Below are positions 19,001 to 23,035 of a DNA stretch of 23,035 nt, in pieces. The position numbers were made by a program. Origin of the DNA: a virus (Duplodnaviria > Heunggongvirae > Uroviricota > Caudoviricetes); the IMG/VR virus record IMGVR_UViG_2778261160_000005, positions 1-23,035 of that record; one strand, written 5' to 3'. The number at the start of each line of letters is the position of its first letter. Position 1 is the stretch's first letter.

Positions 19001-22000
19001 CAAAAGCCGGACGATGAACAGCCGCCACCTGACCGGCGATGCGGTTGATGTTGTGGCCTACGTTGGCAGCAAGGTGTCATGGGACTGGCCTCTGTACGAG
19101 AAAATCGCGCTGGCATTTAAGCAGGCTGCCGCAGAGCTGGGAACTGCCATCGAATGGGGCGGGGACTGGCGGACGCTTAAAGACGGCCCACATTTTCAAT
19201 TGAAGCGATAGCTTGCAAAACATACAGGGCCGCCATGAGCGGCTTTTTTATTGCTCAAAAAACGAAAGAACGGAGGTACGTATGTACGCACTGAAAAAAA
19301 TTACGGTAACTAAAGATGGTCGCCAGGTTGAGGAATTGCACGTCCTGGGGGATATGTATCGTCTGGAGTTCTATCCGCGTGACACTCATCTTGCAGCAAA
19401 AATTGAGTATTGCCGGGACGGGAATATTCCATGTATTACGGTAGAAAAAGAGGATGAGGCTTACATTACCACGCTGAGCGGAGACACGGTGCGTTGTATC
19501 TGTCGCGGAGACAGTAAAGCCCGTGATGAAATAGCTAAATGCCGTACTCATACCAGTAAATAAAAAATAAAGCCCCGGTTGTTGGAGCAATCGGGGCTTT
19601 GTGTTTATGGATTCTCTTTGTGAATGCGCATGGGGATCATTCATGCCAGTAAAGCCTAACACGACGAAAGATAAATTTGGAGATGATCTGATGATAAAAG
19701 CAGAAACCACTCCGCAGGGGGCTGATGATGCCGCAAAAATCATCGCGGTATGCCGGGGTATCAGGCACATACTGACGCCAGTTGCATGGATTATTTGTAC
19801 CGCACTGGTTGCATACACAACAATTTATTTAAACAGATGAGTGCTGATTTTATTCGGGCAACGGCCTTTGCAATTCGCCTTGTTGCGGTCGCTGTTCTGA
19901 TTTGGGCTGTGCGTTGGTGGTGATATGACGCGAAAACACTGGACACACAGAATGCCGCGAACGGCGGCGAAATGGGCACTGGTAGCGATACTGGTGCCTT
20001 TTTTATTGGTGGGGTGCGTCAGCCTGGATAAGGCGCGCCAGCTTTTCGATACGGCTTCTCAGGTCTGCGAAATTGTCGACGGTGTTCGGCAGTGTCTGCA
20101 GAGCTGATCGCCTGTAAGAGCAGAATATTTCGCTGAAAAATGAAGGGTGTGCCAGCGTCCGGAAAGCATGAAATTCTGTGTTTGTGGCTACTCAATAAAA
20201 TAAATTCTTTCTGTCGCCGCGAATACTCAAATGTTGATCAGTGCCCGGTGCGGCGACGGGCTTCGATATCAGGAGACGATGATGGAAAAAACAGAAAACA
20301 AACCGATTGTAATTAGTGCTGCTGTTCCGTTTAAGTTTGAGTTGTCACAACTGGTGGAAGTACGCATCAGTGATGAATGGGGTGAGGTGAAAGGCCGTGC
20401 TCAGTATGCGGGTGGCGAAAACCAGTACTTGATCCACTACAAAGCAGCTGATGGTCGTGCCACGACGGAGTGGTTTGGTGAGTCCATGCTGGAAGCAACA
20501 GAAGATGAGCGCCATCCGGGCTGTCCGGTATTTGCCGGTATGGAATTACCGAAAGGTGCGGTAGTTAATGAGTAACAGGCATTACAGCAGTCCTCTCTCA
20601 CTGAAGGGGGCTGCTGTAATGTGTTAGCTGTTTTTTATGAATCCGTTGACGACCCATCCGACAAATCTGAGAACAGCATATATCAGCAAGGCGCATGTCA
20701 GTGAAGTCAATATATCAAGCAGCGAGAAGCCTTGCGTATCTGTTGGTGAAAATAAAAGCCCAAAGATGAACACCAGTGTAGCCAGCAGAATGCCCAGTCG
20801 ATGGAACCCGTTCGAAATAGTGTTTTGCATTTTTGTTTTCCGTATCAGGTTGTAATGGTTTAGTTATTTTAGCATCTGGATAATGAGGTTCTAATCGTCT
20901 GGATATACCGGAAGCGACGGGGGGCGCTTATTGAGCCTGATATTTATGAAAATGATAATTTTTTCTCATTTTTACGGGTCCTTTCCGGAATTTGAAACAC
21001 CGGGGGTCGGTGGACGCGCAAAAACGCGCTATTTATGAGATTTTTTGAGGGGGTGGTTGTTGTTTAATTGTTTGTTATATCTCATTGATAAGTAAGAATA
21101 AACAGAAATAAATACAACAACCTGATGATGCTTTTTGATGTGATCGATGTATGAAATATAAATAAAATCAAATGGTTTCGTAAAAATACAAGGTTGTTGT
21201 ATCGTTTTTTATCGATGGCTTATGGAGAGGAGATGGCCTGTTTATTGAATAAAAGCGATATGGCCTCCTCCATCGGTATATCCGTTCAGGCATTTGATAA
21301 ATGGGGCGTTCCTCCTGTTGAGCGTCGGGGAAGGGAAGTTTTTTATGATGTTAAAACCGTGCTGGAAATCGATCGCGAGCGACGACAGCACAATCAGAGA
21401 GCACCTGATAAGGGAAAAGCGCCGCTGGACAGCCCTGCGTTCACTGGCATGCCAACCACCCCCACCCCTTCGCAGGATGCGTCCGGTTGTGAAATTGTAA
21501 ATGCTGAATTTGTTCGGGCATTGATTGCTGCAACGTCATCAGGTTCGTATTCAACAGATTCAGTGGTTCCGCTGGTAATTAATGGTGCACAACTCCAGTC
21601 CGCTCATCAGAGCAGTGGACCACTGGTGATAAACAAGGTGCAATTTCAGCACGTCCGTCAGACCAGAACCAATGCCCCCCTGGTGGTCAACAAAGCACTG
21701 ATCCAGTCCGCTCATCAGAGCAGTGGACCACTGGTGATTAACAAGGCGCAACTTCAGCACGGTCGTCAGGCCAGAACCAACGGCCCCCTGGTGGTTAACC
21801 GTATGGGGTTGAGTTTTGCATTCGTTACCCCTTTGCAATGAAAACTAACTTTATGAAATGAGGGTTAAATTTTGAATATCATCGATATGGAAGGTTTCTG
21901 TCAGATCCCGGCAAACCGTGAGCTTACCAGTTCTTACTCAGCATCAACAATCATGTCGTTGCTGAAAGAGTACGGTGTCACACTCATCACTGAAACAACC

Positions 22001-23035
22001 ATAGGCACCACACCTTCTTCAGTCCAGCGTAGCACGCAGACCGTTTATGGTATCGACAGGTCGGGGTTGGTTTTAAGTGCAACAGGAGGACGTATTGCAT
22101 TTAAAGTTCCGCTTCCTGACATAAGTGAGTCTGCCGTGCAAATGGGATTTCGTCTTACTCTGGGTGAGGGAACAAAATATTCTTCAGGTCTTTCCGTCAT
22201 TTCGGTGGGAGGGTGTACGTTTTTGACGCCTTATCCGGCAGAAGCCGCCAGTTATTACTACGAAATTTTTGTTACTTGGGATGGCGTTAAATGCACAGCG
22301 GACTTGTATTGCAGTGGAGCCTTGTCGCAAACAGGCACGTTCTCCCCCGCAAGAACAGACAGCGTATCAGTCACCATTGGGGTAACCAGTGGTTATATTT
22401 TTTCCTCAGGCGTTACAGGTACGCTGATGCTGGGAGATATGTACTGCGCAACGGTGGCATATAACGACGAAAACATCGCAGAAGCCTCTCCACTGGGTAG
22501 TATTGAGGTGAGATACAGTGAGGTTACTCAGTTTGAGGGAGGTCGTGCAGAAAACTCACTGGGGGAAGATATTGTTACAGGACTGAACACACCGAGTAGT
22601 GATGCTGGTTACCTGCTGCTGGGGGCGTCCACGGATGCGGCAGTGGCAACGTTTGCTGATATTGATAATAGAGGTGGAGAGTTGATTGGCATTAAAACAG
22701 CTGTCACATACAGGAGTTCAGCCACGCCAAACAACTATCTGGCGTGGAATACGGGCTGTGAAAGTGGCAGCGGGGCAATAACAGAAGAGACGGAACTAAA
22801 CGCTGACCAGTCCAGCTGGACTACGGTTAAACAATGCTTTATGAATCTGCCCGGTAGTGAAGATGCTTTCGGTGAGGGGAATCTGACGTTCACGGCCTCC
22901 CTGTATAACAGAAAAATATCTGAGGACAATCCTGTATCCCGACACTATCGCGTGATGAGAGAGGTGCTGAATGTCTCCGGTGTTGAGGAGAAGGATATAG
23001 AGGTTGAGGACAATAGTGCAGGTCGATCGCAATGA

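Follow-up and report, generated by a model that had tools for sequence, protein, structure and literature searches.

A 20,183-bp deletion joins the start of a terminase small subunit gene to the end of a repeat-bearing tail fibre gene in an LT2d-type prophage

The closest described relative of the element analysed here is the LT2d phage, a prophage that carries a heat-labile enterotoxin of type II (LT-II) and is integrated into prfC (Ishimaru et al. 2020, PMC6988837). The stretch of DNA under study, referred to below as the window, comprises 23,035 nucleotides of a tailed virus (IMG/VR record IMGVR_UViG_2778261160_000005, positions 1 to 23,035), and our subject is an open reading frame (ORF) near its right end that begins as a terminase small subunit gene (nu1) and contains a tandem repeat. 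The window shares with the LT2d phage the prfC site as well as the 3′ end of a tail fibre anchor gene and the 387-aa gene that follows it, both 100% identical; it differs in being a remnant without 20,183 bp of that phage, and in having an inverted early segment and a 514-bp stretch substituted for 821 bp. A second described system, DLP12 of E. coli K-12, is likewise a lambdoid remnant that has lost head and tail genes, with its lysis genes kept and a Nu1 homologue, nohD, followed directly by fibre-region remnants (nohD - aaaD' - tfaD). DLP12, however, has a full-length nohD, a terminase-A pseudogene fragment, and the assembly gene tfaD as its fibre remnant, whereas in the window the break lies both inside nu1 and inside the fibre gene, with an in-frame fusion between them. 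Compared with lambda gpNu1 and N15 gp1, the window ORF has the same N-terminal winged-helix segment and a putative cos region just upstream, but residues 60 onward have been replaced and no large terminase gene (terL) comes next.

The ORF runs from an ATG at 21233 to 21841 in the ORF list and encodes 202 aa; it is a chimera that arose from the 20,183-bp deletion, the start of nu1 being fused to the end of the fibre gene. The first sign of a composite origin was a two-part match to the PHROG profiles, with aa 4–67 matching phrog_57 (terminase small subunit; E 3.8e-12) and about aa 55–130 matching seventeen others, 11 of them tail-fibre families and 6 of unknown function; Pfam gave no hit to the ORF at E≤1. 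Searched as a whole, the window falls into two parts that map to a single prophage, the LT2d prophage of E. coli O8:H8 16F5M1D1 (NZ_AP019856.1), where they lie 20.2 kb apart. Window 1–21415 corresponds to NZ_AP019856.1 4722379–4744752 at 99.7% identity (the same value holds for 20164–21415 taken separately), and window 21409–23035 corresponds to 4764928–4766554 at 100%. Megablast of 20900–23035 against 5,426 complete E. coli genomes similarly gave two disjoint kinds of match: 20947–21415 matches the start of prophage 'terminase small subunit' genes, and 21409–23035 matches at 99–100% in six genomes, where it is annotated as 'prophage tail fiber N-terminal domain-containing protein / hypothetical protein / DUF4376 fragment'. 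The same query found no match in the phage and plasmid collections.

The junction was located by exact string mapping to an interval of the intact prophage (NZ_AP019856.1 4743500–4767000, designated L018), in which window 21370–21409 equals L018 1207–1246 and window 21409–21450 equals L018 21429 onward. It falls at 21409..21410, with the T at 21409 common to both sides, a microhomology of 1 nt. A three-way comparison at this point has nu1 codon 59 (Asp) joined in frame to codon 263 (Lys) of a 405-aa accessory fibre anchor gene, such that the protein reads ...QRAPD|KGKAPLDSPAFTG... and ends at the natural stop of the fibre gene. All parts of the ORF lie on the plus strand: nu1 codons 1–59, the winged-helix DNA-binding part only (21233–21409; phrog_57; identical to parent residues 1–59); a collar segment from codons 263–315 of the anchor gene, with the motif KAPLDSPAFTG...FVRALIA (21410–21568; tail-fibre PHROGs); and a repeat array with the anchor gene stop codon (21569–21841). 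The C-terminal two thirds are thus fibre codons 263–405, 100% identical to the parent. An earlier note made from this DNA had assigned the repeat to a Nu1-like gene; since the source of the ORF switches at 21409|21410, the fibre-derived part is instead where the repeat belongs.

The deleted part extends from nu1 codon 60 to anchor codon 262. For this segment the annotation gives, on the head side, the remainder of nu1 along with terL, a gene for head-tail joining, the portal, an S49 protease, decoration and major capsid proteins, FI and further head-tail proteins, and on the tail side the baseplate genes V/W/J/I, a fibre of collar type plus its chaperone, the sheath, the tube, a tail assembly protein, a probable 550-aa tape measure, U, X and D. 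The deletion accounts for a 'Nu1' gene that is not followed by a large terminase, the next gene being the normal follower of the fibre anchor. The packaging module had been proposed to be either degraded or replaced; degradation is what is found, with nu1 codons 60–168, terL, portal, head and tail genes removed. The inspection beyond the window that had been recommended for terL and portal found neither, nor other structural genes, in the source contig downstream (NLOH01000010.1 of GCA_002230265.1). That part of the contig holds an alpha/beta hydrolase gene, a small ORF, dinI, prfC, osmY and more host genes, and is colinear with O8:H8 at 99.2%. The remnant, which we estimate at ~26 kb or about 55% of the ~46.7-kb parent, shares with it the integrase, a candidate defence pair, the immunity region, Q, tRNAs, holins, LT-II A/B, endolysin, cos and the nu1 start (99.5–99.9% identity). 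In the manner of a defective lambdoid prophage, it is integrated, has kept immunity, lysis and a Nu1 homologue, has lost its head and tail genes, and has fibre remnants adjacent. As for the intact LT2d phage, we note that in the L018 interval packaging and head genes of lambda type (Nu1, TerL, portal, S49 protease, D- and E-like proteins, FI) are paired with those of a contractile tail of P2 type (V, W, J, I, H-like fibre, sheath, tube, U, X, D), and that the Stf-N anchor module is an additional one placed after gpD.

The Nu1 part of the fusion is closest to phage N15 gp1 (80% identity over aa 1–45) and more distantly related to lambda gpNu1 (31% over aa 5–50), and together with the phrog_57 match this upholds the earlier description of a Nu1-like N-terminus; the winged helix-turn-helix typical of gpNu1 proteins is present. 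The parent terminase small subunit has 168 aa, of which residues 1–59 are kept, with fibre sequence from residue 60. The self-association region and the C-terminal TerL-binding region are absent, having been lost with residues 60 onward, and there is no adjacent large terminase gene: downstream are the 387-aa gene, the hydrolase gene, dinI and prfC, and terL lies in the deleted segment. Because the oligomerisation and TerL-binding parts of Nu1 are gone, the fusion protein is most likely without packaging function. Upstream of nu1, the remnant has kept a putative cos site on the plus strand at 21004–21015, GGGTCGGTGGAC then CGCGCAAAAACGCGCTATTTATGAG, which resembles the cos regions in the first 100 bases of N15 (GGGCGGCGTCCG CGCAGATTCTCGCTATATATGAAA...GGTTGTTGTTTAAT) and of lambda (GGGCGGCGACCT...CGCTATTTATGAAAA), a similarity judged by eye only.

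This arrangement most likely arose by a single illegitimate-recombination deletion of 20,183 bp in an LT2d-type prophage at prfC, with a chance in-frame joint producing one ORF from the native nu1 start to the native fibre stop. The late operon would still be expressible, including Q, the holins, LT-II A/B, the endolysin, the fusion ORF and the 387-aa gene; the remnant would be unable to build or fill particles, and the array and the 387-aa gene would be leftovers. The prophage would be locked in the chromosome. With the toxin genes and lysis cassette kept and no particles made, LT-II release on induction could continue, and phage-borne spread of the toxin genes from the strain should not. A deletion of this kind can create a plausible-looking 'novel' ORF, and is textbook prophage decay.

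Several observations weigh against a genuine deletion. The junction is present on one contig of one draft assembly only, and the fusion protein is a one-member entry with WP_244568571.1 as its sole record; a 34-mer spanning the junction gives 0 matches in metagenome contigs, and no place in the 5,426 complete E. coli genomes covers at least 80% of the query. The joint could then be a chimeric contig from a strain carrying the complete prophage, and the three IMG/VR contigs of the lineage, all with the full 405-aa gene, agree with that, as would a reading of the inversion elsewhere in the prophage, with its 3-nt overlaps, as poor assembly. We nonetheless consider misassembly very unlikely, because it is repeats common to both sides that give rise to misjoins and this junction has a single base in common, and because the contig is continuous, with 99–100% identity to the reference for >20 kb and >8 kb on either side. 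The contig was also reported in 3 samples, and the inversion is internal, has correctly oriented flanks and contains a substitution of its own, unlike a chimeric-read artefact.

It is at least as improbable that the fusion is a functional new protein, with a Nu1 DNA-binding domain on an oligomerising fibre-derived tail that binds cosB, e.g. so as to disturb the packaging of related phages, or that it marks a cos-bearing, helper-packaged, satellite-like element, although the retention of the cos-like site, the native nu1 start and its ribosome-binding site, the open frame through to the natural fibre stop, the kept integrase and a late region colinear with the parent from Q through the lysis genes could all be cited in its favour. 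An in-frame joint is expected by chance one time in three, and the event is unique, with no sign of selection or spread; flanks 99.7–100% identical to the complete phage indicate that the deletion is very recent. The DNA-binding domain of lambda Nu1 is defined as residues 1–68, of which the fusion has the equivalent of only 59. Nor does the element classify with phage-inducible chromosomal islands (PICIs), capsid-forming PICIs (cf-PICIs) or P4-like satellites, as it has full lambdoid immunity, Q, two holins and an endolysin instead of helper-exploitation genes, and apart from two rearrangements it is colinear at 99.5–100% with a complete temperate phage. Lambda-type cos packaging has a lower limit of ~75% of genome length, well above the size of the remnant. 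The earlier suggestion of a Nu1-like DNA-binding protein with another role, as in satellites, accordingly finds no support, given the fibre origin of most of the protein and the colinearity of the element. We are confident that the window is a defective LT-II prophage remnant, the outcome of ordinary prophage decay and neither a satellite nor the bearer of a new Nu1 function.

The fibre gene that contributed the 3′ part is related to those of lambda Stf and Mu S. The 405-aa parent anchor has the Stf N-terminal domain PF08400 (E 1.3e-53), which is deleted from the window ORF, and a PF03406 repeat, and its residues 195–293 match Mu tail fibre S (PDB 5yvq). The collar motif APLDSPxFTG...FV, common to PF03406-containing fibres and Mu S, is present in the fusion ORF, and side tail fibre proteins with PF03406 are 73–79% identical to it over the collar stretch. 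The differences lie beyond the collar. The anchors are short (202–405 aa) and a PLxINxxQLQ array replaces the long shaft and receptor-binding tip; whereas lambda Stf and Mu S are accompanied by Tfa/U chaperones, here the anchor is followed by a separate lectin-like protein and not directly by Tfa. In the LT2d lineage the long shaft, receptor-binding tip and downstream Tfa chaperone are all absent, the anchor ending in a five-unit array and the next gene having no Caudo_TAP domain. The NCBI pipeline labels the 405-aa anchor of O8:H8 a C-terminally truncated pseudogene (one record), which counts against treating it as a whole gene; the recurrence of the short-anchor-plus-array architecture argues, on sequence grounds, that the gene is complete.

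The repeat itself agrees closely with the earlier description of two 108-bp copies at 21595–21810 with 18-aa sub-repeats. Tandem Repeats Finder places it at 21594–21799 (period 108, 1.9 copies, 90% matches, score 349, sub-periods 51/57 bp), and in protein terms the array consists of five units, 17/19/17/19/18 aa long, which begin at 21569, 21620, 21677, 21728 and 21785. The two 108-bp copies differ at 12 codons, 9 of them non-synonymously and mostly at variable positions. A collapse of the repeat during assembly, raised as a possible refutation, does not apply, since the same gap-free two-copy arrangement is seen in 6 complete E. coli genomes and three IMG/VR contigs. The unit consensus is PLx(I/V)N(R/K)xQLQ followed by 7–9 variable residues, with 3–7 tandem units per array, and the array closes with a hydrophobic terminal variant (a GLxFAxx-type unit), e.g. 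PLVVNRMGLSFAFVTPLQ, the last unit in the window, or PLLINHPGLHFAVVTSE.

Neither a blastn search of phages for distant matches to the repeat segment, which gave none, nor a word-seeded protein search with the fibre and repeat part, which returned the query itself and collar-motif matches, revealed repeat homologues, and a search with the repeat alignment produced three fragments only. The word-seeded result had raised the suspicion of chance read-through, but this was overturned by the genes upstream of homologues of the 387-aa protein, a member of phrog_8291; these genes and an exhaustive profile search were the means by which the arrays were found. An array is carried by the gene preceding the phrog_8291 homologue in five of five genome loci: one in a lambdoid prophage, following J and lom; two in prophages of the Mu-like kind; one in a prophage of myovirus type from Raoultella; and one in the P2-tailed LT2d lineage. 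Among 26 IMG/VR loci, the array gene ends 22–30 nt before the homologue in 24, and in the other 2 it is 1.4 kb upstream but still within that fibre cluster, so that the two genes share one cluster in all 31 loci examined. The exhaustive profile search, covering 1.84 billion representatives, found only about ten true array clusters. At the N-terminus these carry PF08400 (lambda Stf-N), PF10076 (Mu Gp48) or PF12571 (P2 H-type collar), the exceptions being fragments and one short protein without a recognisable domain.

In a comparison of the E. coli lineage with that of Raoultella, the array shows a synonymous divergence (dS) of 0.96 and a ratio of nonsynonymous to synonymous divergence (dN/dS) of 0.28, compared with ratios of 0.13 for the collar and 0.23 for the 387-aa gene. 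These values indicate that the array frame is translated and constrained, and from these sequence comparisons the array is a conserved protein feature of fibre anchors under purifying selection. Coding in another frame or on the other strand was rejected, as the other two forward frames have stops in each unit and dN/dS favours the forward frame; a 92-aa reverse ORF at 21560–21838 was set aside as a by-product of the repeat. A role at the DNA level (invertase crossover sites, a shufflon, iterons) was likewise rejected on account of the conservation at the protein level (70% nucleotide identity vs conserved motif positions) and because the array always ends at a stop.

The proposal that array length varies readily at the repeat, as at a hotspot, is supported for the family and not supported within the LT2d lineage. 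All copies of that lineage have five units, and its three IMG/VR contigs have the full 405-aa gene, whereas three close IMG/VR relatives elsewhere in the family (L025, L026 and L027) have 5, 4 and 5 units with a different unit duplicated, pointing to recent unequal recombination within the array. In Mu-like prophages (L010 7003–7977; L028, L035, L037 and L049) the array forms a direct fusion with Gp48, a baseplate protein, and has two 'terminal-type' units (GLHFAxV), one of them internal; these prophages also have two downstream fibre proteins, the phrog_8291 member and a 267–369-aa protein with a chaperone. The idea that one can predict from the count of terminal-type units how many fibre proteins follow downstream fits these Gp48 fusions but fails for L025–L027, and it was dropped.

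To the right of the array is the phrog_8291 gene, on the plus strand from a TTG start at 21872 to the last base of the window, 23035. As had been noted before, its 387-aa product is rich in Gly, Ser and Thr (32% together) and no terL follows the Nu1-like gene; it has no Walker A motif and no Pfam hit at E≤1. It is not a terminase or portal variant, the outcome that had been named as refuting; its profile match is to phrog_8291 (E 7.9e-103; residues 1–347 on profile positions 1–346 of 349), a family of unknown function. Although tblastn against phages gave no match, homologues form 26 clusters, almost all from E. coli, of ~350 aa; they open with the conserved sequence MNIIxLEGFRQIPAN, in support of the TTG start. 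The last ~37 residues (22922–23035; L001 13611–13726) are a lineage-specific disordered extension that is absent from most homologues. The 3′ end of the gene is overlapped, in the O8:H8 record, by a frameshifted DUF4376 fragment, and this hints at a scar of some older rearrangement immediately downstream. Given the family alignment, AlphaFold2 predicts an all-beta protein with two sandwich domains of the lectin-like ConA/LamG jelly-roll type (predicted local distance difference test, pLDDT, 81; predicted template modelling score, pTM, 0.78). Foldseek searches of the PDB with this model matched legume lectins and botulinum toxin receptor-binding domains, and by sequence the phrog_8291 alignment had no significant match in the PDB. 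The best matches among predicted viral structures are ~350-aa proteins of virulent phages (E 1e-13 to 1e-14; template modelling score about 0.6), one of which is annotated as a virion structural protein.

We consider it probable, with some reserve, that the anchor carries the 387-aa protein on the virion, where it would act as a receptor binder, its predicted double jelly roll recognising glycans. More tentatively, as a working model, the array would be the docking site or shaft for this protein. Just as tentatively, it could be a new kind of portable docking or shaft element that can be grafted onto any attachment domain of a baseplate or tail, be it lambda Stf-N, Mu Gp48 or the P2 H-type collar, and recruits phrog_8291 members, its unit number setting reach or valency; if so, the window keeps the distal half of such a fibre. 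T4 gp34-37 and the adaptor-tailspike systems of G7C and CBA120 are comparable in that a baseplate-attached protein carries a separately encoded distal binder, although the likeness is an analogy that belongs to the working model only, and docking by a tandem short-peptide array would be a different solution. Limited literature searches found no description of the array or of phrog_8291 function, and nothing relevant on Mu Gp48-type fibre modules. The anchor-array and its lectin-like partner are a rare, uncharacterised module common to the lambda-like, Mu-like and P2-like tails of enterobacterial prophages, and the anchor with its phrog_8291 protein a candidate modular determinant of host range.

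Some results speak against this assignment: the AlphaFold2 monomer model of collar and array, with one beta-hairpin per unit, has a pLDDT of 50 and is uninformative, for which reason we make no claim as to the fold of the array; the 'virion structural protein' label on the viral fold match is a database name and not an experiment; and physical contact between the array and the 387-aa protein is something that we infer only. The 387-aa gene might instead be cargo (a 'moron') beside the fibre genes, e.g. for a lectin-like adhesin that is secreted or for the receptor-binding subunit of a toxin. In the lambdoid, P2-like and Raoultella loci no further phage gene separates it from cargo or host genes, its fold resembles botulinum toxin receptor-binding domains and lectins, and LT-II prophages with a second toxin have reportedly been described (title of Jobling 2016). 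Cargo is nevertheless unlikely given the strict linkage to an array-bearing anchor across three tail types, at 22–30 nt in most loci, and given that in Mu-like prophages the homologue is embedded in the fibre cluster, where it is flanked by the gp48-array fusion and by another fibre protein with its chaperone and lies upstream of com/mom. The best fold matches, moreover, are to proteins of virulent phages, which rarely carry such cargo, and the conserved N-terminus has no obvious signal peptide by eye. A virion-borne receptor binder is the reading that we prefer.

Elsewhere in the window a second rearrangement is evident. Relative to the LT2d parent, 9703–13457 is inverted, with breakpoints that have 3-nt overlaps in ymfL-like and KilA-N genes; the inverted early-region segment is 4.7 kb overall, of which 3.75 kb is counted in the window, and within it 12187–12700 (514 bp) substitutes for 821 bp of the parent. 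An inversion that breaks two genes fits ongoing decay. The toxin A and B subunit genes (17599–18360 and 18373–18744; Pfam Enterotoxin_a and LT-IIB in the source contig annotation) are flanked by the two holin genes on one side and the M15 endolysin gene on the other, in the part of the late operon that survived the deletion. Beside the integrase, an ATPase and an HNH-like protein (1488–3242 and 3236–4087) give full-length PADLOC matches to the candidate defence pair PDC-M01A/B (E 1.6e-247 and 4.8e-111), and the pair also has weaker similarity to Septu PtuA. Four tRNA genes (CAT, Arg-TCT, Thr-TGT and Gly-TCC; 15735–16044) are located between Q and the holins; the one with the CAT anticodon is called Met by ARAGORN here, vs Ile in the RefSeq annotation of the parent. 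Finally, the inverted segment contains degenerate 21/24-bp tandem repeats, about 4.6 copies at 11653–11757 within a 272-aa ORF (11204–12022), which may be iteron-like origin repeats.

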